A DNA stretch of 60,547 bases, the filler included, from Sphacelaria rigidula (Eukaryota), in the NCBI GenBank assembly GCA_964200075.2. It is 7 parts of 7 records of this genome, joined end to end, with 100 filler letters (N's around TTAATTAATTAA, not from the genome) between each part and the next. Parts side by side here need not be neighbours in the genome. Positions count along the whole stretch, not along the records: positions 43,321 to 51,884 come from CAXNAA020010768.1; 6 more parts are not named here. One strand, written 5' to 3'. The notes beneath the pieces were generated by a model. That model was not told the origin of the DNA and made no database searches. It saw only the letters and a list, made by a program, of their open reading frames with translations. Below are positions 8,565 to 56,609 of this stretch, one piece after another; within the stretch, counting starts at the first letter, position 1, and the number at the start of each line of letters is the position of its first letter. The position numbers and the translations under genes were made by a program.

Positions 8565-8664
8565 NNNNNNNNNNNNNNNNNNNNNNNNNNNNNNNNNNNN
8601 NNNNNNNNTTAATTAATTAANNNNNNNNNNNNNNNNNNNNNNNNNNNNNNNNNNNNNNNNNNNN
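8565..8664. other. Artificial contig spacer (44N-TTAATTAATTAA-44N); also at 17229-17328, 25893-25992, 34557-34656, 43221-43320, 51885-51984
   Basis: Six identical 100-nt linkers at exact 8664-bp spacing; the core gives stops in all frames. Confidence 0.98.
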
Positions 8665-12481: not shown

Positions 12482-12812
12482 CGTGGTTTGTTACACAGTG
12501 GTACAGTGCTGTACTGTAGCAAGGTAACTAGGTCACGTAGCTTGCAGTATATCTAGTCTGAGAGCTAGCAAGACTGCCACGTCAGAGTTGAATCGAGGAT
12601 ACGATTTGGGCTCACGTACGTGGATGGACTTTCGTTTCATGCTCCAGGATAGAAGATGGTTGTCCTCGGTCACCTCGACCCCCAATGCAATACCCCCCCT
12701 TCGTTCTCATCAGCTCTCTGCTTTGAGAAGAGATTGTGCTTTACATTTTGTGTTGGACGCATGAGAGATCGTTAAAACCATCAGTCTATTTTTCTTCTTC
12801 TGCTGCAGAAGC
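12482..12812 (+). repeat. About 330-bp direct repeat, copy 2
   Basis: Colinear with 8962-9295. Confidence 0.92.
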
Positions 12813-25892: not shown

Positions 25893-28800
25893 NNNNNNNN
25901 NNNNNNNNNNNNNNNNNNNNNNNNNNNNNNNNNNNNTTAATTAATTAANNNNNNNNNNNNNNNNNNNNNNNNNNNNNNNNNNNNNNNNNNNNGATGCCCT
26001 TGTCCCCTGGTCATCATCCAGGATCCTACATGCTACATTTACTACGCCTTGGTGTATTTTGGCTACATCCTCCAGGGATCTACCCGTGGTCACATGACAT
26101 GCCCACGGAGCTTTGCATACCCGCGGTACTATACGCTGTGAGAATAAGGATACTTCTTTGTGTGTGTGGGACGGGACGGGATATCTCGTTCGGAGCACCC
26201 ATCGTGTTTTTTGGGGGTGCTTGTCCCGTCCCACTCCCTTCGGCCACCTTTGTAGGGGCTGCCGTACTGCCCCGTCTTGTCTCATCACATGCAAATGCTC
26301 CGTTTTGTCGGTTCGTTCTGGGGACAACGGGATATATCCCGTCCGTCGCGTTTCTGTTCTCTCAGAGGCGGCGGTCCCGTTCCGTCTTTTATCCTGTAAC
26401 AAGGAACGATTTCTCTCGCGATATAAGTAGACACTACGCTCGCCCGGGTTCCAAGCTTCTTACCAAATCATGATGAATATGACACATGTACAAGAAAAGT
26501 GGCACGTAAGGCTGGAAGCAAGGACTAACACGTCTGGACCTTTGTCCTGTTGGGAGGCTCACGATTACGACGTTTGCCGCGCTACACTGAACTCAACGCT
26601 GCTCAACCGGTGGGAATACGTGCCGCATCAAGTAGCTTCCCCATGCGTGCTGCGCCCACGGTGCTCGCTTGCTGCGCGGAGACACCTAAAAAAATAGGGC
26701 ATTCCCCGGGGTCTTCAGACCGTTTCTAAAGGCAACGCTCTCTGCCGTCGAATGTTGGAATAAAGGTTTACCGCCCCCTCTTGAAATACTTCAGAAGGCA
26801 TGGTTGTATTTTGTGGAAAATACTCAAATATCCGGTCACGAGAGAGACGGGTTTGCGCCAAGAAGCCCAGGCCTAACACGCCCGAACTCCTAGTAGCCAG
26901 AGCTTCCGTGTGTGTTGCACTCATTGTCCTTCGAGGGGGCTGCACCGACTATCAAGCACCGTAGATTGCGCACAAGGGGCGTGTGTTCGCACTGTTTGTA
27001 CAGCTTGAACCTGTGGTGTACCCGCGCGGATCCTTATAGGGGGAAGGAAACGGAACTTCATGGGTTCTAAGCCTACGCAGCGAAAACACCCGCTTAATGC
27101 AAGCATGACCATATCTTGGTGGTGTGGTATATATTCTCGGCCCATCGCTTTTGTAACAAGATATCCCCTGGTGGTTTCAAGCTGGGGGCTGAGGCTTGCT
27201 GGCACGTGCGCTCGGCCCACCAAGGACTTTCGTCGCACCAGATCAATACGTACGACGTAGAACCGAACCAACGGCATATTTGGTAATGCACACAAGAGTG
27301 TGTGCTGCACGTACAATCACAATATGGCACAGTACAGAATCGCCCGAGACGAAGATCAAGTCGTCGAACAGCATGATTGTGGTGTGTTATCCTAAGGCAA
27401 GTATCGCCGTCTATACGACTGCACTCCCATTCATGGCCTGTATGTGATGAGAACAGTACGTTGGACAGGGCGCCTGGCTCTGAGAATCGACTCCAGACAT
27501 TTGACCCGGCCTTCGCACCCCTCGGGTTTTGTGGAGTGCAAGCGCGGAGAAAGTTGGCTCCAACATCTGACGATATTTGCGCAAGAACTACGGGCTATGA
27601 ATGAACCTAACCATCCAATACAGACGCAGATCGTCCCTGTTTTTGTTAGGATATTGCGGCAACTCACAGTTTCACCTAATATACCAAACCACAAAACAAA
27701 TGTCATTATTTGCGGTGGCTCTCTGACGTGCCGACACCACCATCATTTCTCGGTGTACCGAGTTGGGCTTGGATGGCGGAAAACATACTTCCTGGATAGT
27801 GGGGGAATGTTTTTTTTGACAGGGAGTCGTTGTTTCAAATCTAACCAGATGTCGATTCAAAGACAAATGGAATCCACAGATTCTCTCATTATGCACCTCA
27901 CAAGAAGAGTAGATGGGGCACCAATGTCGGCCAAACGAAAAGCGTCTATTATGAGAGGCCGACGCCATGTCGAGTGCGCTGCGCGCACGGCATACAACCC
28001 ACCAGCGAGAGTGCCGTGGTGCATACCTTGGAACTCATGCAGGGAGCACATGAAATCAACCACGCTGGTCATACCCGTAATGCCCGTGTTGGTCGAGTCT
28101 CCTTGTTGAGATAAAACAATCCATGATTGGCTGATGCATTTTGCCAACGTATTTGGAAAGTATAAAAAAAATACTGCCCCATAAAATGACCACGACGAAC
28201 ATGAAATATTTGTCCCGTCGAAAGGCCATGGCTCACCACTTATTATCTCTAGCGTCACAGTATACGAAATACTGTCAAACCAGTGGTCATGTGTGCCTCA
28301 TCCGACTTGATGTCACATGCACCCATGCGTCGACGGTGCTTGTTCGGTGCGTCGAGATGATGGAAATAATGGGGTGTTGTGCACAGAATACCGATGTCTA
28401 AGCGTAAGACGCGAATCGTCGCCCTTTTTGACATGGTCATGCGGCAGTCCACATTCCTATATCTGCTCTCTACGCGACGCCGCCAACCCAGGCGTAAAAT
28501 ACCCCCGGCTCCAGTGGCTTTCCAACGAACCGTCACTCCTTCGCTGGCTTCTCGGTATGCCGATTTTGCACCGCAAGACTGCGATAGGGATTCGGGGAAT
28601 TTGCAACAGATATCCCAGTGAAATGGGGGCAGATCTCGGGCGGATTTTGCATATGCCTGTGCAGCATTTCACATTCCCGTTTATGCACAGGACGCAATGC
28701 CGTCGAATCCGGAACAACGTCTCCTGATGTCCAGCAGCTCTCAACGCACCACTTGCTCTTTCGTTGGCCTCCTGCTGCGCTCACACTACACGTCGAGACT

Positions 28801-33130: not shown

Positions 33131-34724
33131 AAGTTTTAACGAAATGGGTCCAAGAATAGCATGTTACTCGTCAGGACCCTGGGACCTCGCATGACCGGCG
33201 AAATAAAAACAAAAAAACGCCATTTCTTCAAAGTTTCGATATGCTTTAAAATATCTGTGTGCAATTTCTAGAGTCTATCTCCAAGAATCGGCATAAATAC
33301 TTGCGGATGGATGAATTTTGGGCCGGAAGTAAGAACAAGCCTACATTTCATTTTGATGCCGAGAGGTGACGTTCTCGCTTCGACACAAGGAGTCGGCAGT
33401 ACGTGTGTGCGCGGGTTATGCCTTGCGCAGTGGTCCCCTGAGCACGCTCCAGTAACCACCCGAACAACAATGGCCTGCACACGCCTCCCCTATCGGTAAG
33501 CCGTGCTGGTGTTTGCATGTATGGCTACGAGACAAGTCTCCCCAAGAATAAAAACCATCTGAACGCGGCGCGATTACCGCCTGTTCGTGGTGGAAACCAC
33601 CTATGATCTGGTGCGCTTGAACACCGTATCTCACATGTTCCAACCCCCCTCAATCACAGGGCAATATCTCGTTAAGGACAGCAACTCCAGAGATGAAGCA
33701 AGTTGCTCTGTATATCCAACAGGTGCGCCTTCAAGTGCTCTACGTTCTGGCGGCGCAGGCTCTTGACGCAGACGAAAGTATCGAGGCGAAGTAAAGATTA
33801 TCTACCGCACATGTTGCGCTATCCCGAGAGTTGATACATGTAATCGTGGTATTCAACGATGGCCGGTAGGTACTTGGACGTCTCTGCAGAGTTTGCGGCT
33901 TGCTGACATTCGTGCGTGTCAAAGAGACCAGGTCACATGCGCGACACCAATCCCGATCAGTACGCAGATCGGGGGAGCTCAGATCGGAATTCTTTAATTT
34001 TTGCACGAATTTCCTCGATCTGCGCTTTAGATTCGGGACGAGGTTGAGCTTCCCCTAATCTCTAGGAAGGTGACGCACGTACAGGAACGTACAGTGATGA
34101 GGCAAAACACGTTCAATCTTATCGAAACCGCATCAGCAGACAGTCCGTGACAGCGCAGACCATGTCTACCCGCGCCAGCTGTTGGAGCAGCTCCGTAGCA
34201 CAGGTAGCGCGCTCGGGGTTTGACAAGCGAATAACAAGTGGTTACGGCGTCCCCTGCGGAAATGACAATATATTGCCCTGGACTGCCGTCTCCATCACTG
34301 AAACGAGTGCTGCTGTACTATCTCACCGCCTGTTGTTGTATACGAGCTGGGCCAGCCTAGAAGCGTATTATTTGGAGTTTCCAGGCCAATTCGCAATTGT
34401 CGACTTCGAGTTGGACACTGAAAATTAGTATAGATAAAAATATATAAAAATGCGTGGTCCTCAAGATTTCTTTCTAAGGTAGTATAACCCTTTTGGGACC
34501 GGGCCTCCAGAACGACCAATGACGCTGGTCAGGAATGACGTGTCTGGCGTCTGCACNNNNNNNNNNNNNNNNNNNNNNNNNNNNNNNNNNNNNNNNNNNN
34601 TTAATTAATTAANNNNNNNNNNNNNNNNNNNNNNNNNNNNNNNNNNNNNNNNNNNNTTACCCCCGCTGCTGCGCCCACACATCCCGAAAGGGGTAGACTG
34701 GCGCCCAGAATAAATGGGACGTCA

Positions 34725-37899: not shown

Positions 37900-38680
37900 T
37901 GTTGGCCTGCGAGTGCCATGTGACGAACCACCAAGTGGACTGACCTAGATTCCCCAGTTCATGAGCCCTGTGCCCCGCAGTGTAGGCCCGGCGCCTCCTG
38001 GGTGCCCCCTGTGGCACGCCTGAGCAGCACGTCGCGGCGGTTTCGCAATGCCGTCGCGTTCCACGCTTCCTAACCAAGATGGCACGCTTTTTATTATGTG
38101 TGCATCAATGTTGGCGTGGGAATATCTTCCAGCAGAAACATGAACGAGGAGATACCGGTACTCCGTCCTCGGGCTGTTGCAGCCGGTCTAGGCCGCCATT
38201 TTCGCTCACTCCATCGATGACCCCCTGTTGTCCTTGCTCGACATAAACACCATCCCGTGCGAAATGAATGTTTGCTTTTATTCTTGTTGCCCAAGCGCGA
38301 TAATTGATGAGTAGTCGTTGTGGATACTCACGTTCGTGTCGGCGTACGAATACCCCGTGCCAAATCACCAACCGACACTGGTTTTTCGTCATGCTGTTTG
38401 CGCCATGCGGGCCTTCATTCCTCCCAACCTACTGATACTACCGCTGTTCTCTCCCCCGTCGCGTATGCAGCCAGTGATGGAGCGTGTGTGTTCCACCCTG
38501 TTTTCCGCACTCGTTGCTGCAACAGCAGCTCTTTTGCTCATTAACTTGAAAGTCGGCGGTGTTGAACAATCGCTTGATGCATGTCCGAACAAAGAAGCTA
38601 CCCCAACTTCCAACCGTGGGTCGCCATTTTCGCCCACTCTACGGGTAACTGATACCCCCCTCTCGTTCTCGCTTGACAAT
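37900..38680 (-). mobile_element. Possible decayed non-LTR reverse transcriptase fragment inside the intron
   Basis: SDCSTPPTFKLMSKRAAV (DxxNAFNxxxR-like) followed by CCSGVPQGAP (GVxQGDP-like) in the expected order. Confidence 0.3.
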
Positions 38681-38743
38681 TAAGCCAAATGATGGATTAC
38701 GTTTTTCCTGCTTGTCTTCCGTGTGCGCTGTTTGTCGCAACAG

Positions 38744-41452
38744 CAGTCGAAGAGAGAGCGAGAACGGACATCACCGGCGTTCATCACCTTCGAAGTTGAA
38801 GAAGCACAGTCTCGCCGGTGACGACGCCAAGCCTACTCCTTCAATGACCCGCGATCGCACAGAAGATAATTCCGGAGTTCCGATAAACAGGTCACCGACA
38901 CGTCAAATCGCCACCGACTCTCCCGGCGGCCGCAGAGCGGCTGGCAATCATGACCGTAACCCCGAATTCTCACGCAGGGATCGAGATAGTGACAAGGCAG
39001 AACGCGGGCGGCGATCGCCATCGCCGCCTAGCGGCGATCGCGGCCGCTCCCGGAAAACATCGAGCTATTCTTCGTCGAATCCTCTCGCTGATGCCGTTAC
39101 CAACAGCAGCGGCAGCGGCAAGGCTACGCGTGGACAATACGACACGTCACACGGTCAACCACACCGCCGTCGGCAGGGTCGCGACTCTCGTCCCTCCTCC
39201 GAATCGCCGCGTTCGCCAGTTGGAAACGAGTCTTCTCCTTCTCCCGCGAGGAAAGATACTCCGCGTACTATCCGACAGAGTAACGCCAATGAAGGTAGCG
39301 GAGAAGACCCTTTCTCGTCCTCTCCCGAGGCGAGTTCTACTGTTCTTGAGCAGAAGAAGTCATTGGCCCCCGTCGCAACTCGTCGGCCGTTATCATCATC
39401 AGAGTCTCCTCGCAGGAACGACGACCAGGTAGGAAAGCGACCGATCGCGCGTAACGGTGTCCGCTCCCTGTCCTCGAAAGAGCGGAGGAAGAAGCGCTCG
39501 GATTCGACAGGTTCAGTTTCTTCTAGAACTAATTCGCCTATTTCAAACAGAGTTGCCGCGTTTTCCCGGGACACAAGACGAAGTGACGACCACGAGCTCG
39601 GTGATGGTGGCGATGGCAAGGACGAGGATGAGGATGAGGAGGAGGGGGAGCCATCTCGCCGATCACCCCCATCTTCCGCCGCCCACCGACCACGGCAGAG
39701 CCAACAGCAGAGCCGTCGCCGCGGGTCGTATTCAAACTCGCCGTCGCGTTCCGCGTCGCCGTCTGTCCGTCGGCCATCATCCGACGCCAGCAGCAGCAGG
39801 AAACACACGGAGCAGGACGAAATCAAGAAGAAGCGCCAGACCGACGGCACTCTCTCGACCAACGTGGAACACGAGCGGAGCCTGTCGAAGTCCAAGCAAA
39901 ACCGCATGATTGCGCCGGCGGCGGCGGCGGCGGCGGCGACCGGCGGAGATAGCGATGCTTCCTCTTATTCCGACCTCGAACGACGTAGACGCAGGAAGAA
40001 CCGCAAGGCTTCTGCCGATTTTTCGGTGAATGATCACAGAACTGCTGGTAGCGGTTCTCCGTCCGCTGCCGAAGGAAGCGACCAGCGCCGGAAGGACAAA
40101 GGTCGACAACTTCAACGAGGGGACACCGTGCAGTCGTTGCCGTTATCATCGGAGGAGGAAGAAACAGCGACCCGCGGGCACCTCCGCACCAGGTCTGCGT
40201 CAGTCTCCGCCTCACCACCTCCGAAAGCGCGGAAGATTGTGCTCGAGAAAGGTGTAGGGCGTGTCAAGGCTGTCGCCGGCGGCGGTGGTGGCGGCAGCGG
40301 CGGCGCGGTCGACTGTGAGGGTAACGGGAAGGAGAGAAGTGGGAGTAAAGACAAGACTGCTCGAGATGAACGTTCGGCCGTTCCCGTCAAGAAGAAAAAG
40401 AAGAAGCGGGAGGGTGACAGGGAAGGTAGACGGACTGAGAAGGCTCATGCGAACAAAGAGAATGATGTGGACGGGCGTTCTTACTTCCGGGATGACGGCA
40501 GTGACGCGCGAGACCGTTCGCCGCGTGACATCACCGCTGACAAGAAGGAGGGGAACAAGAAGATGAAGAAGAAGAAGAAGAAGCAGAGCGGCGATCGTTA
40601 TTCTGTAGAGGAGCGTGACAGAGGTGATGGTGACAAGCGGGGGGAAGTAGGCGATGCGGAACTGTCTCGATCGGGACGAGAGGGCGGGGGGGGGGGCGAC
40701 ACGGAGAGGGAGTCCCGTTCGATGGATAGGGCGCGACAGGTGTCCTCAAGCCACGACGATGAAGATCATTTCGCTGCCTCATCCTCACTGATGAAAAAGA
40801 AGAAAAAGAAGAAGAAAAAGATGCTAACGGACGCATCCGATGAAATAGCGGGCGACCGATACGATGGCGGGGATGATGGTGGGGGTAACAGCGGCGAACC
40901 GGCGCGGTCACCGAAAACGTCGAAGGCGAACAAGATGGCAGCAACAGTCTCGAAGACCAAGGAGAAGGCGGAGAAGCGCGATTCCGTGCGCGCCGGGCAC
41001 AGCCACGAAGGAGCGGCGGCAGCGACGGAGACCGCAGCGCCTCCTGAAAGCCGTCCTAGCGATGAAGCGCAAGACGACCCCGACGTTATCCCGCCGCAGC
41101 AGAGGAAGAAAAAGAAGAAAAAGTTACGGGTGCCGGATATCGATGATTCAGCTGTCGCTATCCCGCGCGTGTTTCCCCCGTCGTCCTCGTCCTCCGCCGG
41201 CGCCGGCGCCGTCGGTCGCAATCATCTGCACAACAACGGCGGCGTTTGGAACTCTAGCGGAGGGAGACAGCGCAAGATGTCTGGGGCAGGGAGTGAGATG
41301 GATGGGGTGAGCGGCGTTGATAACGAAGGGGTAGCGAGCAAGCGGAAAGACTCGGTGGCGGCGGCGGCGGTTGAAAAGGAGGTGGAGTTGAGCCCAGAGG
41401 ACGAGGAGCTCATGGCAGGACTCCGGAAGTACTTGAGGGATAAGCATGTCAA
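38744..41452 (+). CDS. 2.7-kb exon of the same Ser/Arg/Lys-rich, probably nuclear protein; gene likely continues 3'
   Basis: ORF 38673-41456; CAGCAG acceptor 38741-38746 fits the phase-2 donor at 37161; AA|GTGAGT donor at 41453; RS/SP motifs and poly-Lys tracts. Confidence 0.85.
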
Positions 41453-42319
41453 GTGAGTATGGCGACCGCGGTGTGTGTGTTTTGTATTGCGTCCGCCAGT
41501 TTCTCAGTGTGACTAATTTTATTTCTTTCATGCATCCGTGCACGTGTACGTCGGAGGATGCACAGCTTTGCCTTCCTGTAAGGTAACTAGAGGTCGTGTG
41601 TGAACTTTTGATGAGAGTGCAAAATCTTGCCCTCATGGGTGTCGTGTTTTATTGTGTACAGTGATGTAGTAATCTCGATTTCTTGCTTAGTTGACTAGGC
41701 ACTTTTTCATACCCTGGACAATAGAATATACGGTCGAAAAACGTACTGCGTACAGTATGGNNNNNNNNNCAATAGACAATAGATTCCATACTGTACGCAG
41801 TACATTTTTCGATCGTGTATTCTGTTGTCCAGGGTATGCACTTTTTGTTTTCTTTATTTCCTTCTTGTCGAACAAATTGTTCTGTGATGTAAAAGTGTGT
41901 ATATATTGTTCTCTATGCTCGATTTTTCGCGATGAAAAACTGTATATGATGTGTATAATTTTATTGCACATACTCGGAAGTCAACCTACAACACTACAAG
42001 AGAAAGGCCAGAAATTTTTGCGGTTAATCTTTCTACCCATTTAATATATTTTTTGTTTTGAGTCAGTGCAAAATATACCGCAAAAGCGTCACCGCTAGCT
42101 ATCGGTATACTGACTCATGTACGAAAAAAATAACCCAAAAGGTCAATGCGTGGCTCTTCGGCATCAAAATTTGAACTTCCGAGTACCATTTTATATAAAT
42201 GCAAATCGCAGATATGTTGTTTCTCAAAAATACAGGAGCAGCTTCCCCCTAGCATTCAACAAGCAACATGCCATTGATCAAGCCAATATCCAAACAACCC
42301 ATTTATTTTCTTCTGTTCG

Positions 42320-42825: not shown

Positions 42826-43917
42826 GGGCTCACAACAACACACGCACATGGATGTATATATAAATATAGTTGTATTGCTTTCCGTCGTGCTTTTACTTCT
42901 AACCCTTCCCGTTCTCATGACGAGTTCCTCTGCTTGCTTCCCGAGTGATGAATGAATCCATCTCTTCGCCTGGTGCCCGTTTGGCAATTTGATATGGAGC
43001 GTTGGATGCTGACTGTCAACATTTTTCATGATCTCTCTTGTCTTATTTTCTCAACTAACGCCCTTGCTTTTCGACGACGAAAACCAGCACTCGCAACCAT
43101 AGAGCGCTTTTATTACTGTGAGGATTCCAACATGCTCCGTCTCGAAAGGGATGCGTGGTCAATGGTCAAATGACTAAGGCAAGCAACAAATGAGGACACG
43201 GCCGCCCACGCCGCCCGCCCNNNNNNNNNNNNNNNNNNNNNNNNNNNNNNNNNNNNNNNNNNNNTTAATTAATTAANNNNNNNNNNNNNNNNNNNNNNNN
43301 NNNNNNNNNNNNNNNNNNNNGGCGCTGTATGGTCATTTTTTTTGTGACACTTTTAGCTGGTTTTGGGGGGGGGGCTATCGTAGAAAGTGTCTACTGACTG
43401 TATTCCGCGTTGGATGTGCTGGCTCCGATTGAACAGAGTGTGATCCAAGTCACCACGATCGGGATGGTCATACAACACAGGCCAGCCGCACGTGTTTTGC
43501 CATTATCCGAGGATACAGATGGTGCACCCGGATGCACATGTAATGTTTTCGGCACACGGGTGGGACATGACGCCTGGACCATCATCGCGTGAGATTTACA
43601 ATAGTGTCGACAGCGTCTTGTTTCCTCCCATTTGTACAGGACCGCAAGGCACCCGTACCGAGCAACACAGTGCACACCACCGAACGCGGGACATAGTCAC
43701 TTTCTCAGCCTGCGACTCGCGCCGACGATCCAGCCTTCAACATTGAATTTGATATATGCCGCGTGTTGGGCCGTAGATCCTTCCCAAGGGACTCCTCGCT
43801 CGTGTAGATTATACCTACTTTGGGGATGCTCTAAGCTGGTATTGTACACGATGACTGTTGTACACGAAAATGCGCACACACTTTACGTTTTGGTTTTGGC
43901 GCAACACTGAGTGTCAC

Positions 43918-46377
43918 CTACGATGTATCGTCTGCCCGAGGAGGACGACTAGACACTCCGAGCTCCAACTTCACGTTCGAATTCTCCTCCACCTGTTCAA
44001 AGTCCACATGAAACGTGCCCAGGCATCCATGTGCCATAGCTGGCGAACCAAAAATCCGCCCCGAACTCACACCGCCACTCCCAATGACACTGCTACGACG
44101 ACCCTCGTTGGTCCAATCATTTGAACGGGCACCCTGCTCGCGACCCTCGCTGCCCGTATCGCCACCGTGTGTTGCAGAACGGACTGCTAGCTTTACCTTC
44201 ATCCAATCTCCTGCACTAGCCTCTGACAACATCTCACCAGCCCCTGAAGCTAGGCGTTTTGTTCTGACGACCCGCCTGGGACCGGCAAACGCACTCTGGC
44301 GAGCACCAACACCGTCGTTTGCAACAGAACCCGAGAATCCCGGGTGCTTGCGTTTCGTTCCTCGTACATCGGCAACGCTTCCTCCATCAACCTTTGTTGG
44401 ACTATGGAGGGGGGTGCCCTCCCCAATGTGAAGCCTCGCGGTGTCGGGCGCCGCAGCTGTATCGTGTGCAGAGGTATGTTTTCGGCAGACCTTTGCCTCA
44501 TCAACGGTGTGCCTCTCATTGACAGTCAATTCGGACCACCCCTTTTCACATTTGTCGCTCACCACGTTTAATATTCCTGATCCCCCATGCTTGGAACAGA
44601 ACCCCGCTTTCATGCTTCCCGCCACACCAAACGATGACTTGGTCGAGCAGCCTTCGTAGCTGCACTTCTTGTTGATCACACTCACCATTTCCGAACTCGC
44701 ATGCTTGGAGCAGAACTCGGCCTTCTTACTTCCCGCTACACCATACGACGGAAGCGTGGAGCAGCCTTCGTAGCCGCATTTCCTGTGCTTAACATTGACC
44801 ATTCCCGACCTCGCATGCTTGGAGCAGAACTCGGCTTTGTTACTTCCCGCTACACCATACGTCGGAAGCGTGGAGCAGCCCACGTAGCCGCACTTCTTGT
44901 TTACCACATTCACCATTCCCGACCTCGCATGCTTGGAGCAGAACTCGGCCTTGTTACTTCCCGCTACACCATACGACGGACGCGTGGAGCAGCCCACGTA
45001 GCTGCACTTCTTGTTTACCACGCTCACCATTCCCGACCTTGCATGCTTAAAGCAGAACTCGGCCTCGTTGCTTCCATCTACACCATACGACGGCTTCGTC
45101 GAGCAGCCTTCGTAGCCGCACGTCCTGTGCACAACACTCACCATTCCCGACCTCGCGTGCTTGGGGCAGAATTCCGCCTTCTTGCTCCCCGCCACACCAT
45201 ACGACGGCTGCTTGGCGCAGGCCTCGTAGCCGCACTTCATGTGTTTAACACTCACCATTCCCGACCTCGCATGCTTGGAGCAGAACTCGGCCTTGTTACT
45301 TCCCGCCACACCATACGACGGAAGCGTGGAGCAGCCCACGAAGCCGCACTTCTTGTTCACCACATTCACCATTCCAGATCTCGCATGCGTGGAGCAGAAC
45401 TCGGCCTTGTTACTCCCGGCTACACCATACGACGGCTTCGTCGAGCAGCCTTCGTAGCCGCACGTCCTGTGCACAACATTAACCATTCCCGATCTCGCAT
45501 GCTTGAGGCAGAATTCCGCCTTTTTGCTCCCCGCCACACCATACGACGACTGCTTGATGCAGGCCTCGTAGTCGCACTTCTTGTCCACCACATTCACCAT
45601 TCCCATCGTCGCATGCTTGGAGCAGAATTCCGCCTTCTTGCTCCCGGCCACACCATACGACCGGTGCGTGAAGCAGCCCCCGTAGCCGCACATCTTGTTC
45701 ACCACATTCACCATTCCCATCGTCGCATGCTTGGAGCAAAACTCCGCCGCCTTGCTCCCCGCTACACCATACGAACGCTTCGTCGAGCAGCCCTCATAGC
45801 CGCACTCCTTCTTCGCCACATTCACCATTCCCGACCTCGCATGCTTGGAGCAGAACTCCGTCTTCTTGCTCCCCGCCACACCGTACGACGGAAGCGTGAA
45901 GCAGCGTTCATAGCCGCACTTCTTGTTCACCACATTCACCATTCCCATCGTCGCATGCTTGGAGCAGAACTCCGCCTTCTTGCTCCCCACTACACCATAC
46001 GACGGCTGCGTGGAGCAGTCCTCATAGCCGCACTTCTTGCTCACCACATTCACCATTCCCACTCTCACATGCTTGGAGCAGAACTCCGCCTTGTTACTTC
46101 CCGATACACCATACGACGGCGTTGTCGAGCAGCCCTCATAGCCGCACTTCTTCTTCACCACATTAACCATTCCCGACCTCGCATGCTTGGAGCAGAACTC
46201 TGCTTTCTTGCTCCCCGACACGCCATACGACGGAAGCGTGGAGCAGCGGTCGTAGCCGCACTTCTTGTTCACATCCATATTTCCTACCCTGGCGTGGTTG
46301 GAGCAGACCTCCGCCTCGTAGCCCTGTACACCGCGAGATGACGGCTTGTTGGAGCAAACGTTTGTAATGCACACTTT
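43918..46377 (-). CDS. EsV-1-7 cysteine-rich repeat protein: 15 full plus 2 degenerate 38-aa C-x4-C-x16-C-x2-H repeats and a low-complexity C-terminal tail
   Basis: Uninterrupted 818-aa ORF, consensus KKCGYEGCSTxPSYGVAGSKKAEFCSKHARSGMVNVVN; 114-bp unit array about 44557-46266; first in-frame ATG at 46278, or CAG acceptor at 46380-46378. Confidence 0.92.
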   Translation of the reverse strand, partial: KVCITNVCSNKPSSRGVQGYEAEVCSNHARVGNMDVNKKCGYDRCSTLPSYGVSGSKKAEFCSKHARSGMVNVVKKKCGYEGCSTTPSYGVSGSNKAEFCSKHVRVGMVNVVSKKCGYEDCSTQPSYGVVGSKKAEFCSKHATMGMVNVVNKKCGYERCFTLPSYGVAGSKKTEFCSKHARSGMVNVAKKECGYEGCSTKRSYGVAGSKAAEFCSKHATMGMVNVVNKMCGYGGCFTHRSYGVAGSKKAEFCSKHATMGMVNVVDKKCDYEACIKQSSYGVAGSKKAEFCLKHARSGMVNVVHRTCGYEGCSTKPSYGVAGSNKAEFCSTHARSGMVNVVNKKCGFVGCSTLPSYGVAGSNKAEFCSKHARSGMVSVKHMKCGYEACAKQPSYGVAGSKKAEFCPKHARSGMVSVVHRTCGYEGCSTKPSYGVDGSNEAEFCFKHARSGMVSVVNKKCSYVGCSTRPSYGVAGSNKAEFCSKHARSGMVNVVNKKCGYVGCSTLPTYGVAGSNKAEFCSKHARSGMVNVKHRKCGYEGCSTLPSYGVAGSKKAEFCSKHASSEMVSVINKKCSYEGCSTKSSFGVAGSMKAGFCSKHGGSGILNVVSDKCEKGWSELTVNERHTVDEAKVCRKHTSAHDTAAAPDTARLHIGEGTPLHSPTKVDGGSVADVRGTKRKHPGFSGSVANDGVGARQSAFAGPRRVVRTKRLASGAGEMLSEASAGDWMKVKLAVRSATHGGDTGSEGREQGARSNDWTNEGRRSSVIGSGGVSSGRIFGSPAMAHGCLGTFHVDFEQVEENSNVKLELGVSSRPPRADDTS

Positions 46378-47687
46378 CTGGCTACGTCAACCACGGGGTC
46401 CTCCGTGTCGTGCTCCCTTGAAAACCAACTGCTCACAGAAGCACAAACATCAAAAGGGCAGAAAATACCTCGTGAGCCACGGGTGAAAGTGAGTTGAAAC
46501 GCCTCGCAGAACAGGTGGCGTTACTTTCACGGCACATACTCCGGAAAAAATGTAGCAGCCTGCCGTCAAACGCAAACGACTCTCCATGTAAAGCTGACCC
46601 CGAAAATTACAAAGATACTCGCAAAATGAGTCCAAGGAATGGGACGTTCTTCACACAATCGCGCAAGGGGTCGGGAGCGGATTGGGATGAAATGTAGAAC
46701 AATAGCAGGATGTTCAATACACAAAACATGTGAAGCACAACGCCAATGCTAAAGCATACTCAGCCATATCACATATATCTGACATTGATGTATTCAATAA
46801 TACAAAACCCAGGGCTTGTACGTCATACAGAACGAGCCAGCTAGAAATCATTGTGCAAAGTGAAGGGCCAGACGACATCACCGAAGGATTCAGCGATCGC
46901 TATGCAGCATCACAAACGCAATGCACGTGAGTAAACATAAAACAGGCGCGTGTGGTGAGGGGTGGACAGCTTTTGCGTTAAACATCGCCTGCAAAAATGC
47001 ACGGGTCATACATGGCTCAGGAGAAGGGTCACGGCGATGTTGAACTCTGGGACTGGACGACTCGAAAGCGCACGTGTAAATAATGTACCGCACGTATTAC
47101 TGCGGGGGCTTGTAAGCCGCTACGGCTCTCCAAGCCGCTACAGAGTTTCAGCTGCTGGTCTGTGTTGCGAACTCCGGGAGAGCAATGACGATAATAAACG
47201 AGGTTTGTCCGGAAATCGATATCCAAATCACACCAGCAACAATGCTGAAAGGGTTGTGATCAAATCAGCTGTGGCGAGACCTACATCGCTGACCGAAATC
47301 TACCCAGGTGACTCTGTGCTGTCAGCATCACTCTGCAGCCTCTGGGAAATTTTTGGTAGTATCCGACTTGTGCAACGATTGCGTCCGCTCCTTGCAAGAT
47401 TTGTGGAGTCTCCCACAGAATTGAATTACTTGCCACTGTGGTGGAGATCAAAACTGAAACAAAAGCTATACAGTGAGTTGGAATTAAGAGTACTGCAGTG
47501 ACAAGATCTATCATCACCGTTTCGATGCACACTCGGTCTACATGGCACCATATGCTACGACAACGCCGAGACGCATCGCAGAAACACGGTTCTTTGTCGG
47601 TACTAGCAGGCAAAGATTTCAACAGGTGCGCGCCGGCGTGCCAAGGTACCTGCGGGTGCGTGGTTCGCACCAGCCTCTTGTTTTTAC

Positions 47688-47900
47688 CTTCCTCTTGGGT
47701 TCATGGTTGCACAAATTAGTGGCAGTGCCACGAACATCGTCGGCAAACGTATTGCAGCCACAAGAGTACCCTGGATGGACGAAGCAACTCCGAGATTCAC
47801 TAGAGGAACACGGTAAGTGAGCCGGCGGTGTGATGTCCAAAAATGCTTCATCGGCTGCGCTGTGGCGTGGACGGAAAGTATTTGGTCGCCGTAACTCCAT
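47688..47900 (-). CDS. Candidate first coding exon of the EsV-1-7 gene (MELRRPNTF...NHEPKRK)
   Basis: ATG at 47900; AAG|GTAAAA donor at 47687 in phase 0, compatible with the phase-0 acceptor at 46377; no homology support. Confidence 0.35.
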
Positions 47901-49039
47901 ATTTTTCGAGCGTCTGTACTACACATGATTCCTGATTGTATAAAATAGGATTTACAAGAGCCTGAGTTCCCAAAGGCACACAATACCCATCGTCGGGATG
48001 ATATGAATCTGCTGCTGAGCTGTGCCATGTCGTGGCAATCGGTGGTGTTCATCAGCTGCATTGGTGATTCTACAAATCGTCGCCACATACATTGTGCTTG
48101 ACGGGGTGCTATGTGACGTCGGTGCGTGTATGCTGGGCTGGCCATGACCTGAAATATAACGGAAATGCACAAACTGACTGTATAGTGTTGAGTACACAAC
48201 ATATTACTACGCAGTACGGCAGTCACAGAGCAACGCACGCTATCTGCGCAGCAAGCGCAAGGCCGAAGAGCGTGAAACAAACTGCGCAACGCACTGCACC
48301 ATTGATACTTGGACGGGCGGCATTACGTCGGTCACGCTCACTGGTGAAGCGTGCGCTCCGTTTATTTCACCGAGCAAGCCAACACATAGAACATACGTCC
48401 ATGCTGCATGCTTTATCCACATCTACGACAGAGCAGAACAAGATCTTCCTGCATCAGATACTCGGGTAAGTTGTACCGGACCGGTAAATATCTTACCATT
48501 TCCTCATCTCCCCTGTGTGTTGTACTCGGCCACTAGGGTTAGAAAAAGAGTACCATGTGGGCTGGACAGCAGTTGACTTCGACACTTCTTACGGCAACAA
48601 AAAAGGCAATCGACGAAAGTGGGGCGACTCATCCCTTTTTTAAACCGGAATGAGATAGTGGCAGAAGACAGATACGGGCTCTGCCTGTGCTCCTCCTGGA
48701 TCAATCAAGATCTAATCCTGACGCGAAGGAAACACGAACATTGCCTAGGCAAAGCAAATCAATCGACTTTCATCAACTTTTGGGCGCGCCTACGGGCCAA
48801 AAAGTGCCGCGGGCAACAGGGACTGGGCAGGAGGCCCCTTCTTGTCCGAAAATAGGATGGGGCTATCCATCGCCATCTAATCTTCCTCCCCACTACAAGA
48901 CACTAGACCTTCAACACGTACTAGGATTGGCATGTTCTAGTACGTTGAATGCACCCCACCAATACCCTCGAAACGAACAAGCTGGAGATTCTCTCGGTAG
49001 AGATCGAGATAGAGACGGCAAGAAAGGGCGCATGGAGAA

Positions 49040-50450
49040 GTAAAGTGTTGACGGGTATAATACTAGTAGTGCTGGTATTCGCAGTTCGTAGCGATATGAC
49101 GAAAATAGAGTAAAGGAGATGCAATGGAGTTGGACTATACTGTTCGGCGAGAGGGACTGTAGTGAGGGGGAAAGAGCATTTCCGAGTCACGCTAAAACAG
49201 AGCGCGAGCAAGGGGTGGGCAAGGATAGAGACAAGTAAGGTGTCGGCATGGGTTACAAGAGTAGAACGGATAGTATGCAAAGCTAGTGAAGCAACAATCC
49301 TAGGGCGTAGTTCACGGATAAACGGAGCGGGAGAGTAAGAGACATGATGGAAACAAGAGGAGAAGGAGCGCTCAGACGCAAAGTAGACGAGGGAGAACAC
49401 AGAAGATATACGAGGGATTGAGAGAGGGGGTAAGGATGGCAACATATTTGCATGGCCCGATGGACGCGGGGAAAATTTGAAACTGTTATCTCGGGTGGGG
49501 GACCTGGACCTGCCGAAAAGAATAAAGAGATTTACCAGTCGTCGAGAGAAGGGGGAAGTAGATGCACAGGATTGCCCCTTTGGCAAAGCAATAAGGAGAA
49601 GAAATCATTTAGTGGCAGAATGTGAACTGTACAAGGAGGAACGGGACGTGCTAGAGGGGGAGAGGCGGGACGTGAACGAAGGTGGGATGAAATTGTTTGA
49701 TGCATTAGACAGCGAAAACGGTGGTTGTACTAGGAGATAGATGGTGGCCAGAGACGGCGAAAGAGGATGGGAATGAGATATGCAAACAGTTTTTGTGTAA
49801 TAAATGGAAGAAACGTATTGAGCGCCTGAATGTTGGAGATGTTTCTATTCGGAATAGGGAAGGTGTTCTGTCCCGAAAGGGATGCGTGGTCAATGGTCAA
49901 ACGACCAAGGCAAGCAAAAAATGAGTACGATTCCCTAGTGCTACGGTGCTCCGTCGCGAAAAGGATGCGTGGTGAATGGTCCAACCATCAACGTAAGCAG
50001 CAAATCAGGACCCCCCCCCCCCGTCCCCCCACTAGTGAACCGTCTCGAAAGGGATACGTGTTCAATCGTCAGATGACTAAGGCAAGCAACAAATGAATAC
50101 GCCCCCCTCCCCCCCCTCCAGCCTGGTCCGGCGAGAACCCGGCGTGCTCCGTCCCGGTTTTGTAGGGGTGGACCCCCGATGGGGTCGGCGTCGGTTGGCG
50201 ATGACGCTATGAAACACGCCCCCTCACTGCGTAAGCTAGGCGACCAGGTTACCGGTTGTTTTTGCCTGCTTGCGTATTTTTTGCGGTAACCATGACGGTA
50301 GTCGAGCTAGATCATGTTGTGCGGCGGGAGAGAACCTCAACTCCGCACAACGGGGATGATCGTACTACGTCGTGTTTGAATGGTGAGACATCCATGAGGC
50401 AGTGTATAAGCCGTGGCTGTCTCTGGAAGTGGCGATACCAGAAAATAAAG
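49040..50450 (+). mobile_element. 5'-truncated, frameshifted LINE: ORF2 C-terminus and 3' UTR
   Basis: TYLHGPMD..KLLSRVGDLDLP..CPFGKAIRRRNHLVAEC (decayed CCHC)..LGDRWWPETAK..GCVVNGQTTKASK*; parts recur at 43139-43195, 51985-52040 and 25811-25892. Confidence 0.75.
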
Positions 50451-50514
50451 CAACTCATTGTAGGCTGTCATCCAAATGCAAGATAATCAGTACAGGCTGG
50501 TCCACGGGAAAAAA

Positions 50515-51720
50515 AAAATGTCATCAGCAAGTGCCTTCTGCAAGACGCACCCAATAGTCGCATACATGATCTCATACCGATCGCAATGAACGGACGAAAA
50601 GGGTGGCATAGCTGGATTTTTGTTCAAGGCTGTGGCGGTGGCGCGATGGACAAAAATTTGTCTCGACCAATCAGCGCCTTTCAAAATGTTCCGAAAATGA
50701 AAATACGAATTCCAAGGCCAATTTCCACCGAATCTCCACATGCTTCGGATCGTAGTGAACGTCATCACCTTCAGAATTCAACAGGAGAAACGGATTTGAA
50801 AACGGTTCCAACGGGGTCGAATTATACCCGAAACCGTGATGTTTCGGTGATATGGAGTGTGGGTTCGTCTAATTTCCACTCATGGTACGCGGGAAAGATT
50901 CAGGGATCCTCTTGACGATTTCCCTCATGTCTGTTGTAGAAAAGCTCAGATTATCCTCGAGCTTGGCAGTTCCGTAGGTATTGATGCTCCGAATGGAAAA
51001 ATTGTGTTCTTGGCAAGGGTTTGAAGTTTCTCCGTTCTCTACCGGCTTCCGGGGGTCCAAGTACAAAGACCCCGGAAGGCGGTACAGAATGACGCGAAAA
51101 AAATAATACCAACATGATGCGTGCCGGGATGGTTCAAGAAACACATGTACGAAAGTTTGGTGAAGAAACTCGAAAATCTCATACAAATGTCCCCGCCTTG
51201 ACATAAAATTCACCCTAAAAGATGTTTTCATACTCAACCCAAGTAGTTAGAAGTTTGCACATTTTGAGCTTACATCCTCGCACAAACGCGCAAATCTTCA
51301 CGCATTTATCACGAGTTAGACCGTGAAACTTTGCACAAATGTCCCATGAATCATTACGCAAGTTACGATCAACAAGGGTTTTCCACTTCTTGATTTGTTT
51401 ACCGTTTTTCAGGGGTTCCACGGGATCCAAGTCGTTCTTTCGAAGTCGTCCATTCTGGGACCCCGGAAAACCAGCACTACGCTCTTTTCTTTATTTTTCC
51501 GCGGACGCTCTGTCGCCGCAAGCCCCAAAGAAGAACCCCACAAATTTTCGTAGCCAAACTCGATGAACTGGTGCTTGAATTTTCATGTTCACGTCAAAAA
51601 AGGCTCAAAAACGCCATTTTCATACTAAAATCTAGTAGTTTGCCGTTTCACCTGGCATGGCAAGGTTCATCGCACAAACGCGAAAAACTTCACGCCGTTT
51701 CAAGGAGTCCACGGTTAGGA
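50515..51720 (+). repeat. Dispersed repeat family A, copy 3, with an internal sub-repeat (51220-51320 vs 51610-51720)
   Basis: Colinear with copies 1 and 2; ttttcatact..tagt..tcgcacaaacgcg.aaa.cttcacgc occurs twice. Confidence 0.85.
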
Positions 51721-52716
51721 CAAATCAGAATTCATACGAGTCGACTCGCCATGACGCGCAAGCAGTCGAGGGTGGATAACACATATGCACCGCAGTCATC
51801 TTGCGCGCATTACAGTTGTGAGAAAATCTCGCGTGGATCAGGGACCATCGGAGGTGAAGAGTCCACCTGTACAACTTGTTAGTCNNNNNNNNNNNNNNNN
51901 NNNNNNNNNNNNNNNNNNNNNNNNNNNNTTAATTAATTAANNNNNNNNNNNNNNNNNNNNNNNNNNNNNNNNNNNNNNNNNNNNCGTGGTCAATGGTCAA
52001 ACGACTAAGGCAAGCAACAAATGAGTACGCCCCCCTCCCCCCCTCCTCCAACCCCAGAATGAGGTTTATGCGGAGAAAGAGGGGGTGGCTCATGGATTTC
52101 CCGATATGGGGCCCCTCGCTCTTGCGACAACTATTGGCTTTGTCTGTAAGTTTGTTCCTTGACGACTATTAATACCTGTGGTACACCTTCAGTGCGCCTT
52201 CCTGCGGTCCCCCATACACGGTTTCCTCTACAAGTGCCGTATTTCTGCCGTAGCTTCCTCTCATTTTCCTCTGCTGTGTGCCCTTTCGGTACATGAAAAA
52301 AAAATTGCCGCGATTACGCTGATTGCAATTATTATCACCGCAGTTTACTCTACTTCGGTGTACTTCCATTTATAAATTTTGTAGTCTTTACTGCTTCATT
52401 TTTTTCGGTACTTACACTCCCCTGCCGAGCCTACACTACCTGCTATTATTACACCAGAATCATTGTACTCGGGTGTCTGGCGTCCATTTCTACCCCTTCA
52501 ATTTAATATGGCGCAACCACAGAAAATAATGCCCCCCTCGGTCATTCCTCTTTACAAATCTTTACGCCGTCAGCGTTTCCTTTCATCACTTCAAAACCAT
52601 TCACTCTTAGTTCCACTGTACACGAAGAAGTAAAATCCGACTGAGCTTCGGCCCTCCACTCTGGCGACTGCACGTCTCAAGACTTGGCTGCTACTAGTGA
52701 CCACGACCACCATTTG

Positions 52717-53031
52717 TCCAAGACTTCCAACATGATCGACGAGTCGCTACGCGCTCGCTCTGTTGCGAAACGCACACCGTCCAAGACTCCCGACATGATC
52801 GACGTGTCGCTACGCGCTCACTCTGTCGCGGACCTTCCACTGTCCAAGACTTCCAACATGATCGCCGAGTCGCTACGCGCTCGCTCTGTTGTGAAACGCA
52901 CACCATCTCGGAGTTCCAATAAATCTGCCGAGTCGCCACGCGTTTCCACTGCTGTGCAACGCAAACCGCTCCAGGCTCCCGCCGCGGTTATCGACTCACT
53001 CCGCGCTCGTGGTGTTGACGAACGGCATCCG
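52717..53031 (+). repeat. 63-bp tandem repeat, about 5 units (21-aa SKTSNMIDESLRARSVAKRTP if translated)
   Basis: Units start at 52717, 52780, 52843, 52906, 52969 and decay rightwards. Confidence 0.9.
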
Positions 53032-54899: not shown

Positions 54900-56609
54900 A
54901 CCGCGGGGTGCGGAGGGGCTGGTCGTGTATATATCGGGGCGAAGCTTGAGCTGAACGGGCCCAGGGTCGTCGAGGAAACGCACGATGTACGTGTCGGCCG
55001 CGAGGGCATCGACGGAGTGGATCTAACCTAGCCACCAGAGGTAATCGCTGCCCTTGTACCACAAATAGGCACCTTTAGGGAGCGGTTGTTGTTTTGCGCG
55101 AATCTTTTCGTCCCATTGTTCGGTGGGTACGAGTTCGTAACCATCGACTACAAAACGTAGTCCTTGGTCGCGGTGGAGTTTGCGAGCCGCAGCACCGCGT
55201 CTCATGTTGCGGCATCCCTTGTTGTCAGCGAGCTGTTGCTGTGGGGATTGTGCCCAATAGAGAAGGATAGCACAACGGTGCAGTTGAAGGTTGGACTCGC
55301 GTTCCCAAGACGCACGCCGAAGATCTTGCCGGTGTGTCTTGTACATAACCGCAATTTTGCCGCCAGGACCTCGAGTGATTTGGTGGCCGGCATATGTGGG
55401 ACACGGCCAAGCGGAGAGGTTGTTCAGTCACGTCATCGGTGGTAACGTGGTATGGTGGAGATTTTGTTGAGTATGTTGAGCACGTATTGAGTGAGACCTG
55501 CAGGCAGGTAGTGAGGCATGTCAGTAGTGTCATGCGGGTTCGTGCAAGGCTTGCAACGATGCACAGAGACGCGAGATTTAGCGTCATGTCCCTGGAGGTC
55601 ACGGGGTAAATCGAGGTAGAGGAGTTTGTCGCCAACAGGCTTGCCGTCAGGAGACGTCGGCGAGGGTCCGACAATGAGGATTGTGAACAGGCCCGTCCAA
55701 TTGAGGGACAGTTTCGTCTTCAAGACTGTTGCCTGGGCAGTGCGGTCAGTGCCTTGGCGGATGGTGGACAACCTGTTATAGATCCAGACCCAATCGCCGA
55801 TCTTCCAAGTAGGGCGTTTGTGCATCAAGTTGTAGAGGGCGGCATTGGATCTTTCAAGGCGTGAGGCGTTGATAGCGTGTTGTTCGCGCACCAAAGTGAA
55901 AGCCTTGCGCTGACGGCCCCCGGCGAGGTCGTGGTAGGACATCTGATCCTGTTCCAGACCTTGGTGACCATCGAAGGTATGTCTTTCGAAAACGGTGATG
56001 GGCAGACGAGGGTAGCGTCCAAGATGCAGCTCGTTGGGCGGAAGACCGGTAGCCGCGTTAACCGAATTGTTGTAAGACAGCATGACATGCGAAAGATGAA
56101 GGTCCCAGTCATTCTGACGGTCGTTTACGACCATGGATAGCATTTGAGCCATCGTGTGGTTCACACGTTCAGTTCCACCGTTACCGTTAGGGTGGCAGGC
56201 GCTCGTGGCAATTTTGCGAATGGCGAGGAGCTTGTACAAAGCATCCGAGAGTTCGGAGCAAAATTGTTGACCATTGTCGGAGAGGAGCCGTTTCGGGCAG
56301 CCATAGGGCTTAATGTAGTCATGGACGAGAATGTCCGCTGTGCCGGCAGCAGTGACATCGCTAGCAGTAACAGCGTACATAGCCGCGTGACGGCTGAAGC
56401 GATCGGTGAAAAGCAGAATGTAGGTATTACCACGGTCAGTGGTTCGGCAAAGGGCCGAAGTAGTCAAACGATACGAAGTGACCAGGAGCGTTTGGAGGCT
56501 CCATGGAAATCACCGGCCCTCGTACAGTCTATCGAGAGGTTTTGCGAGCCTGACATTTGAAATATCCTCGGATCCAAAAACGCGTGGATGTTTCCATGCC
56601 GATCCACCA
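54900..56609 (-). pseudogene. Ty3/Gypsy integrase with chromodomain-like C-terminal extension, disrupted
   Basis: WWIGM..KCQARKTSR*..SFDYFGPL / GNTYILLFTDRFSRH..LLSDNG..GNGGTERVNHT (DDE); then YKTH..SWERESNLQ; stops and frameshifts. Confidence 0.92.

Follow-up and report, generated by a model that had tools for sequence, protein, structure and literature searches.

EsV-1-7 proteins make up one of the largest gene-family expansions of the brown algae; among them is IMMEDIATE UPRIGHT (IMM), which controls early development. We know of no demonstration of zinc binding by EsV-1-7 units, which is assumed for the family. IMM is described in two papers as regulating development, and its biochemical function as unknown (PMC7457493, PMC12993054). 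IMM orthologues are defined by an IMM-specific N-terminal domain ahead of the repeats in a further source (bioRxiv 10.1101/2024.02.19.579948). For Ectocarpus, a further preprint reports that no EsV-1-7 protein carries another Pfam domain (bioRxiv 10.64898/2026.04.27.720984). The family has been hypothesized to consist of zinc-finger transcription factors (PMC12629598). Here we describe an EsV-1-7 gene of Sphacelaria rigidula. The gene lies on the minus strand of a stretch of 60,547 nucleotides (called the window here) from the assembly GCA_964200075.2, in the part that comes from CAXNAA020010768.1 (positions 43,321 to 51,884). The window is made of seven parts of seven records joined by N letters, and adjoining parts are not necessarily neighbors in the genome.

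The gene is a new and unusually long member of this known family. We think it fairly probable that it is also an ordinary one: an intact host gene that encodes zinc modules, in which exposed positions vary at a near-neutral rate, and whose product acts as a nuclear, polyvalent nucleic-acid binder. The array is long, clean, and recently expanded, and constraint can be read from it column by column.

The repeat array and its family

An open frame at 43918..46374 on the minus strand spans the whole array. The product matched the Pfam family EsV_1_7_cys (PF19114) in 15 stretches with a score of 724.7 bits (cut-off 25; E=3.4e-224). This match, above the gathering score, agrees with an earlier sequence-only reading of the window, which had recognized the units as EsV-1-7 repeats and had proposed that they form a modular recognition code. 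A Phe_ZIP match on the same gene (E=2e-9, 0 stretches) and a row for PDB entry 1q2h look like repeat-driven noise and were set aside.

Tandem Repeats Finder reported a repeat at 44586–46273 with a period of 114 bp, 14.8 copies, 83% matches, 0% indels, and a score of 1995. It also reported a higher-order period of 342 bp, or three units, at 85%. The 15 intron-free units of 114 bp follow each other without gaps in one minus-strand frame, as first described; the range given there, 44557–46266, is 44560–46269 shifted by 3 nt. We cut the 38-aa units so that each begins three residues ahead of the first cysteine (Cys1). In this numbering, cysteines occupy columns 4, 9, and 26 and a histidine occupies column 29, giving C-x4-C-x16-C-x2-H in 15 of 15 units. 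The scaffold had been called almost fixed. The Cys3His set is indeed invariant, but the description was too strong for the unit as a whole: only 10 of the 38 columns are invariant, and 28 vary in at least one unit. Degenerate repeats were found at both ends, as expected from the same reading, but the upstream one is probably untranslated.

At column 12, the third position after Cys2, the units carry L,T,Q,L,K,H,Q,K,L,Q,K,R,L,L,K, a letter-for-letter match to the series that had drawn attention to the gene. The P/R/S alternation at the next residue (column 13) and the changing residues before Cys1 (columns 1–3) were likewise reproduced. The column-12 codons of units 1–15 are CTT ACG CAG CTT AAG CAC CAG AAG CTT CAG AAG CGT CTT CTT AAG. 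The codons had been listed correctly and interpreted as multi-base non-synonymous changes, but single-base steps suffice, along the path CTT-CGT-(CAT)-CAC-CAG-AAG-ACG, with one unobserved synonymous intermediate. Because the six codons connect by single-base steps, no special mechanism is needed for the changes at this column.

Units 1-2-3 resemble units 4-5-6, and units 7-8-9 resemble units 10-11-12 (86–93% nucleotide identity). Since these three-unit blocks resemble each other, the units are not 15 independent samples, and the residue series shows a period-3 echo. The repeats are basic, as had been stated: the array has 85 Lys+Arg against 32 Asp+Glu, a net charge of +53, and a pI of 9.4.

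In the homologue search, 7999 candidates were scored, and 156 proteins were found at E≤0.001. The best 120 of these 156 (P0001–P0120) are the homologue set referred to below. Top-ranked among them are S. rigidula proteins that are 47–63% identical to the product and share its cap unit and tail. Among shorter proteins, a further search yielded P0221 (S. rigidula, 332 aa), which is approximately 86% identical over units 13–15 and the tail; no orthologue or allele closer than P0221 was found in the homologue searches. The conserved tail is common to at least eight S. rigidula proteins. When the best 120 homologues and the product itself were taken together, the C-x4-C-x16-C-x2-H spacing (548 motif hits) and the 38-aa period (302 neighboring unit pairs) were by far the commonest. 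The homologues have a maximum of 11 canonical units with a strict pattern, or 12 with a looser pattern, compared with 15 here. Judged by its layout, the gene lacks an IMM-type N-terminal domain: the first ATG lies inside a repeat remnant, and there is no N-terminal non-repeat region. In a side observation, the Pfam family Zf_WRKY19 (PF24906) weakly matched the starts of EsV-1-7 units in P0039 (residues 134–143; E=6.4e-9 for the whole protein), P0025, and P0116. These two families of short Cys-rich repeats may be related.

EsV-1-7 family genes are often clustered; there is no second one in the 60-kb window. None of the ten longest other open reading frames (ORFs) of the window is a giant-virus core gene. 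On sequence grounds, we assign the locus to the brown-algal EsV-1-7 family as a host-type gene, and to a Sphacelariales subfamily with a common C-terminal tail. The subfamily placement follows from the nearest relatives, which are paralogues from S. rigidula (63–86% identical) that share the cap and tail.

Variation and selection along the unit

Column 12 is the most diverse column of the array (2.28 bits, six residues), followed by column 1 (1.93 bits, five residues). Eleven more columns lie at 1.0–1.4 bits. Leucine makes up 5 of the 15 residues at column 12. Parsimony on the unit tree gave 72 amino-acid changes in 28 columns: seven at column 12, five at column 1, and four at each of six others. 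The idea that variation is confined to the columns singled out beforehand (1, 2, 3, 12, and 13; called the noted columns here) was not clearly supported: columns 12 and 1 lead, but 21 of the 72 changes fall in the noted columns and 51 fall elsewhere. Column 12 covaries weakly with columns 14, 1, 11, and 38.

Selection was estimated with an MG94-type codon model for the 15 units on an IQ-TREE tree with a length of 1.34, in which many nodes have bootstrap values of 19–39. On the full-data tree, the ratio of nonsynonymous to synonymous rates (dN/dS, or omega) was 0.32 for all columns and 0.26 for the 33 columns other than the noted ones (p=1e-35 against omega=1), so that the scaffold is constrained by purifying selection. 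The five noted columns together gave an omega of 0.73 (p=0.14) on this tree and 1.09 (p=0.65) on a tree built without them; the corresponding values for column 1 were 0.69 (p=0.41) and 1.28 (p=0.55). For column 12, omega was 2.0–2.2 (p=0.064–0.085) on the full-data tree and 3.05 (p=0.004) on the maximum-likelihood tree without the noted columns. On 30 bootstrap trees built without these columns, column 12 had a median omega of 2.96 with p<0.05 on 27 of the 30, and column 1 had a median of 1.08 and was never significantly above 1. Of the noted columns, 1, 2, 3, and 13 have an omega of about 1 or lower, against the expectation of dN/dS above 1, and column 12 has an omega of 2.0–3.1 with a p that varies with the tree (0.004–0.085). 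Including the site in the tree makes the estimate conservative; a tree without the site, or a noisy tree, inflates the inferred changes, and gene conversion between units would do the same.

Pairwise counts gave proportions of synonymous (pS) and nonsynonymous (pN) differences of 0.357 and 0.113 for the other columns; pN was higher at columns 12 (0.605) and 1 (0.336). The GC content of third codon positions is 0.75, and codon use is strongly skewed (AAG:AAA 61:6). Such a strong codon bias probably depresses dS. As a neutral control that is independent of tree mapping, 4000 neutral codons were simulated on each of two trees. The simulated codons had a mean of 4.6–4.7 residues and a diversity of 0.61–0.62. 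At least six residues were obtained in 24–26% of the runs and a diversity of at least 0.82 in 9–10%. Column 1 thus shows the variation of a neutral site. Column 12 lies at the upper limit of the neutral range, which suggests selection without demonstrating it.

The family set comprised 541 canonical units of the homologues; diversity is given as the mean over 72 proteins with at least five units each. Between the repeats of one protein, columns 1 (0.83) and 12 (0.79) are the most diverse, and most non-scaffold columns lie at 0.55–0.72. The family profile follows that of this gene (rho=0.70). Columns 1 and 12 are also the top two in seven S. rigidula paralogues; in nine Ectocarpales proteins, they rank first (column 1) and eighth (column 12). 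Across the family, polar or basic residues predominate at column 12 (n=541; R 134, Q 87, I 63, T 62, K 45, H 30).

Close relatives gave a second measure of change. In 10 usable close pairs (46 units), columns 10, 32, 28, 3, and 6 lead with 15–20 of 46, and columns 12 and 1 stand at 10 of 46 and 12 of 46. Ten clusters at 90% identity (39 units, 327 events) gave 27 events at column 10, 14 at column 12, and 12 at column 1. In the three units shared with P0221, 16 of the 114 positions differ, one of which is at column 12 (L to I, with L and K retained in the other two units). Columns 1–3 and 13 are identical in all three, so that 14 of the 15 noted positions are unchanged. The ratio of change to diversity in the family pairs is 0.27 for column 12, 0.29 for column 1, and 0.31 for the mean of the variable columns. 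Repeat-specific residues are thus retained to roughly the same degree as other variable positions, a result that a code would allow but that does not single out these columns.

In the account that we favor, the protein would consist of 15 back-to-back 38-aa Cys3His modules, most likely with one zinc ion each, followed by a decayed cap module and a tail of approximately 180 aa with a basic patch. The array would have grown by tandem duplication, including two duplications of three-unit blocks, and the divergence between units would since have reached about 0.36 differences per synonymous site. Selection would keep the zinc ligands and a small hydrophobic core. A few exposed positions, foremost the third residue after Cys2 and the residue three before Cys1, would drift approximately neutrally, and drift at this rate would account for the apparent hypervariability. 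The most likely function would be that of a nuclear polyvalent binder of nucleic acid, probably DNA, similar to a poly-zinc-finger protein with flexibly linked modules.

Several points weigh against this account. Column 12 is above the mean synonymous rate in every analysis (omega 2.0–3.1; pN 0.605 against a pS of about 0.35), and therefore pure neutrality at this column is not secure. The excess is nominally significant with the trees that lack the noted columns (p=0.004; below 0.05 on 27 of 30). Columns 1 and 12 are the top two for diversity between repeats but only about 7th and 16th between close relatives, and repeat-specific residues kept by selection would give the same picture of high repeat diversity with middling change between relatives. 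No solved structure matched significantly in sequence, Foldseek, or VIA-align searches. Zinc binding, nuclear location, and DNA binding are properties that we infer for this protein from its sequence, and the signals that point to a nuclease in the C-terminal domain of the viral relatives are weak.

The recognition code is the first alternative to be weighed. Here each module would read one unit of a nucleic acid, column 12 and perhaps the residues before Cys1 would set the specificity, and selection would have diversified the repeats and afterwards preserved them, as in C2H2 zinc-finger, TALE, and PPR arrays. The top rank and omega of 2.0–3.1 at column 12 fit a code, and so do the lead of columns 1 and 12 in the S. 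rigidula paralogues and family-wide, the middling change between close relatives (14 of 15 noted positions kept in P0221), the mostly polar or basic residues at column 12, and its weak covariation with columns 14, 1, 11, and 38. DNA is suggested as the ligand by proteins in which such arrays are joined to a nuclease-like domain, to a transposase, or to a protein named as a primase (PMC12477816). However, the neutral simulation attained the observed diversity in 9–10% of the runs for one pre-chosen site, and column 12 was chosen out of 38 columns after the data had been seen. The excess had p=0.06–0.085 with the full-data tree, the trees are poorly supported (bootstrap values of 19–39 at many nodes), gene conversion would inflate the changes, and the strong codon bias probably lowers dS. 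Variation is also spread over the unit, with 51 of 72 changes outside the noted columns and an omega of about 1 or lower at the other four. Leucine at 5 of 15 positions is a further point against a code. Another is that change between orthologues, taken relative to diversity between repeats, is no different at columns 12 and 1 (0.27 and 0.29) from the average of the variable columns (0.31). The proposal is supported in part, in what it says of the family and charge of the units, but we regard the code itself as unlikely.

Predicted fold, viral relatives, and possible ligand

AlphaFold2 gave a pLDDT of 84.5 and a pTM of 0.52 for two units with flank, and a pLDDT of 71.5 and a pTM of 0.31 for six units. 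The predicted unit has strands at columns 15–17 and 34–36 and a bridge at column 25; some units also show a single turn of helix over Cys26–His29. The models suggest confident modules with no fixed mutual arrangement, which would resemble beads on a string more than a solenoid. Columns 3 and 12 are flagged as isolated bridges in the six-unit model. Together with the weak covariation of column 12, this hints that the variable positions may flank the zinc knuckle on one hairpin.

A sequence search of solved structures with six units and with a 15-unit profile gave 0 matches at E≤10, and two wider profiles gave only chance-level rows. The six-unit model had 0 Foldseek matches at E≤0.001, and 0 of 48161 chains reached Z≥2. 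With the two-unit model, Foldseek likewise gave 0 matches at E≤0.001 against the PDB. VIA-align placed 4 of 48161 chains at Z≥2, all of them RING domains and all weak (Z 2.1–3.3, rmsd 3.3–3.6 Å, 41–43 residues aligned). LIM, B-box, PHD, and RING domains recur in the non-significant Foldseek rows, and GATA and nuclear-receptor DNA-binding domains occur in the same noise.

These rows bear on a second alternative, in which the protein is a scaffold whose treble-clef or RING/LIM-like zinc domains dock peptides or proteins, and the variable positions tune the partners or are merely exposed. It agrees with the four RING domains as the only structural matches at Z≥2, with the recurrence of LIM, B-box, PHD, and RING, and with the description of IMM, the one studied member, as lacking a known biochemical activity (PMC7457493). 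All of the matches are weak, however, and the DNA-binding domains of GATA and nuclear-receptor proteins share the same noise. The high positive charge and the partners to which the repeats are fused in viruses and a transposon fit nucleic acid better (PMC12477816), and we consider a protein-binding scaffold rather improbable.

A fold search of BFVD gave 24 matches at E≤0.001. All are from giant viruses and include EsV-1-7 itself, the founding protein of the family (Q8QNQ2 'EsV-1-7' of Ectocarpus virus 1, E=9.1e-8, 49% identity over 81 columns). Depositor names among the 24 include 'Endonuclease' four times and 'DNA primase' once. In 76 of the best 120 homologues, an array of 2–12 units is followed by a C-terminal domain of 160–200 aa (called the C-domain here) with the pattern RPD...ExDExQH...NPD (for example, residues 262–450 of P0060). 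These homologues are mostly metagenomic, and their Atlas neighbors are in Nucleocytoviricota. The residues R77, P78, D79, E92, D94, E95, Q97, H98, R109, R126, N128, and P129 are invariant in a 50-sequence alignment of the C-domain. The family of this domain is a very large one, with matches in 1452 of 1459 short candidates, of which many carry one repeat or none. Proteins with this domain also bear upstream Cys pairs. Among P0229–P0348, the C-domain occurs alone (approximately 195 aa) or with a single EsV-1-7 unit (approximately 233 aa), and the attached repeats range from 0 to about 12.

None of the 120 short relatives listed for the C-domain has a name. No Pfam family covers the C-domain, and scans of PHROGs and NCBIfam returned nothing relevant. 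At E≤10, Pfam gave one weak Hjc row (E=0.29) in one of nine proteins. The nearest named Atlas clusters are PvuRts1I-like_N (0.86–0.88) and DUF559 (0.85), both under the lead threshold of 0.9. The C-domain may be a PD-(D/E)xK (DUF559/Vsr-like) nuclease. A literature search with EsV-1-7 and nuclease and with the Pfam and InterPro identifiers found no paper on a nuclease-type fusion or a residue code. A Tc1/Mariner transposase of Ectocarpus is reported to bear an N-terminal EsV-1-7 domain (PMC12477816). DNA is a plausible ligand because of the array charge of +53, the fusions of arrays to the C-domain, the depositor names, the transposase fusion, and the earlier hypothesis of transcription factors.

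A more far-reaching proposal is that EsV-1-7 arrays are a further natural class of modular DNA readers. Column 12, assisted by the residues before Cys1 on one and the same zinc-knuckle hairpin, would specify bases, and giant viruses would aim a PD-(D/E)xK-type nuclease with 0–12 units ('zinc-repeat nucleases'). The brown algae would have domesticated the arrays as transcription regulators, and the 15-unit gene would read a long specific site. We hold this to be a long shot. The hypothesis of DNA binding is directly testable, because one position stands out and many of the giant-virus relatives join arrays to a nuclease-like domain. A residue-to-base rule, if true, would provide a new programmable binder; otherwise, the gene is an ordinary member of a poorly understood zinc-repeat family.

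That the locus is non-functional, being a decaying array, an inserted giant-virus fragment, or an assembly artefact, is very improbable. In its favor, the upstream unit is decayed, a transposon integrase-like fragment lies 9 kb off in the joined window, and no sequencing run containing the stretch is recorded as RNA, but the frame is open over 2.4 kb, the scaffold is under purifying selection, the ligand residues are invariant in 15 of 15 units, the stretch is present in runs of three studies, and the conserved tail is common to at least eight S. rigidula proteins.

Gene model, window, and comparison with known systems

Table 1. Features of the EsV-1-7 locus, in positions of the window (CDS, coding sequence).
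Feature	Position	Strand	Remarks
CDS	43918..46278	-	786 aa; ATG 46276-46278; TAG stop 43918-43920; intron-free inside
EsV-1-7 array, 15 tandem 114-bp (38-aa) units	44560..46269	-	Tandem Repeats Finder, Pfam, unit table
Column-12 codon series	44638..46236	-	unit i = 46234-114(i-1) to 46236-114(i-1)
Degenerate 'unit 0'	46270..46371	-	C-x4-C-x16-C-x2-H spacing kept; from translation
C-terminal degenerate cap unit	44461..44559	-	Cys2 lost; decayed unit also in S. rigidula paralogues
C-terminal tail, 180 aa	43921..44460	-	no Pfam family; common to S. rigidula paralogues
Antisense open frame, 546 aa	44701..46341	+	crosses array
Possible splice acceptor	46429..46433	-	AG at 46432-46433, 5' end of coding exon

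The 786-aa CDS in Table 1 is the most likely gene model because its ATG, at 46278, is the first after an in-frame TGA at 46387–46389 (the stop-to-stop frame ends at 46386) and the models of the S. rigidula paralogues open at the equivalent 'MVNV' position. No further ATG lies upstream between 46278 and 46431, in the putative exon. The tail runs collinear with the paralogues P0221 and P0001 as far as the stop. Unit 0 is probably a decayed repeat, untranslated and now part of the 5' untranslated region, since it lies almost wholly 5' of the first ATG, behind the in-frame TGA. The antisense frame was rejected as a gene: its Pfam matches are all under the cut-off (best 20.2 bits against 27.2). It is best explained as a by-product of the repeats because purifying selection and the Pfam match both sit in the minus-strand frame.

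The tail is basic and of low complexity, and residues 606–818, which include it, have no Pfam match. It has a basic patch, RGTKRKH, at 44344–44364 that is conserved in the paralogue tails, and a hydrophobic-K-x-E motif, VKLE, at 43963–43974. We take the patch to resemble a nuclear signal and the hydrophobic-K-x-E/K motifs to resemble the SUMO-site consensus. The motifs VKLE and MKVKLAV or MKVELAV (43963–43974 and 44182–44202 in the window), together with the RGTKRK patch, occur at the same tail positions in P0001, P0002, P0004, P0007, and P0221–P0223.

Contigs of four public runs (X1, X2, X6, and X7) were placed on the 5' flank only (46160–48400). The contigs of X6 stop at 46431/46432 and go on in unlike sequence; the two loose-end continuations have no match anywhere in the window. 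X2 and X6, which belong to one study and whose RNA type is only guessed, thin out upstream of approximately 46431. The DNA-like runs X1 and X7 carry on past 46431 at unchanged depth. We see in this a weak hint of a splice acceptor near 46431. The gene is probably expressed. One X1 contig departs from the window at 46279 and 46283, just 5' of the start codon, where X2 and X6 agree with the window; the differences suggest strain or allele variation. Over the first unit (46160–46234), the summed contig word depth was 3625–15354 in all four runs, compared with tens in the flank. Because the depth is in the thousands, the words of the first unit appear to be common to many loci, in keeping with a very large EsV-1-7 family in the organism.

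Elsewhere in the window, an open frame of 935 aa at 38649–41456 (+) is convergent with the EsV-1-7 gene in the joined sequence. It is Ser/Arg-rich with long Lys runs and no Pfam match, and is possibly an exon of an SR-like nuclear protein. The ORF at 55433–56509 (-) matches the integrase core (rve) at E=8.4e-7 with 29.6 bits, against a Pfam cut-off of 32.6, and is probably a transposon remnant. Tandem repeats at 52715–52942 and 11820–12007 have 63-bp units (3.0–3.6 copies, 79–80% matches) and 84-bp units (2.2 copies). At intervals of 8664 bases there are paired runs of 44 N (8565–8664, 17229–17328, 25893–25992, 34557–34656, 43221–43320, and 51885–51984), and short N runs occur at 17914–17923 and 41761–41769. 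The regular N pattern has the appearance of masking or scaffolding rather than of biology.

The gene is most like the brown-algal EsV-1-7 family (PF19114 / IPR043822), which includes Ectocarpus IMM. It shares with this family the C-x4-C-x16-C-x2-H spacing, the 38-aa period, the tandem arrangement, and the lack of another Pfam domain. Unlike in IMM, the CDS begins directly in the repeats, without the N-terminal domain, and the gene is not an IMM orthologue. It differs from other EsV-1-7 members in having more canonical units and the Sphacelaria-type subfamily tail. The EsV-1-7 repeat proteins of giant viruses resemble the product in the sequence and fold of the repeat, and the same columns are the most diverse among their repeats. 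The giant-virus-type proteins end in the C-domain of approximately 160–200 aa, whereas this protein has a basic, low-complexity tail in its place.

The resemblance to C2H2 poly-zinc-finger proteins lies in tandem small zinc modules (here predicted), a basic character, no fixed geometry in the free state (pTM 0.31), and an array length that varies through duplication of units. The ligands, in contrast, would be CCCH at a 4/16/2 spacing, and the predicted fold has three short strands and one helical turn, as known here from sequence and models. With TALE and PPR proteins, the array has in common tandem repeats of 34–38 aa in which one position is far more diverse than its neighbors. TALE and PPR proteins are rigid helical solenoids with a proven code of one repeat to one base, whereas the units here would be zinc-knuckle modules whose packing is not confidently predicted and in which 28 of the 38 columns vary.

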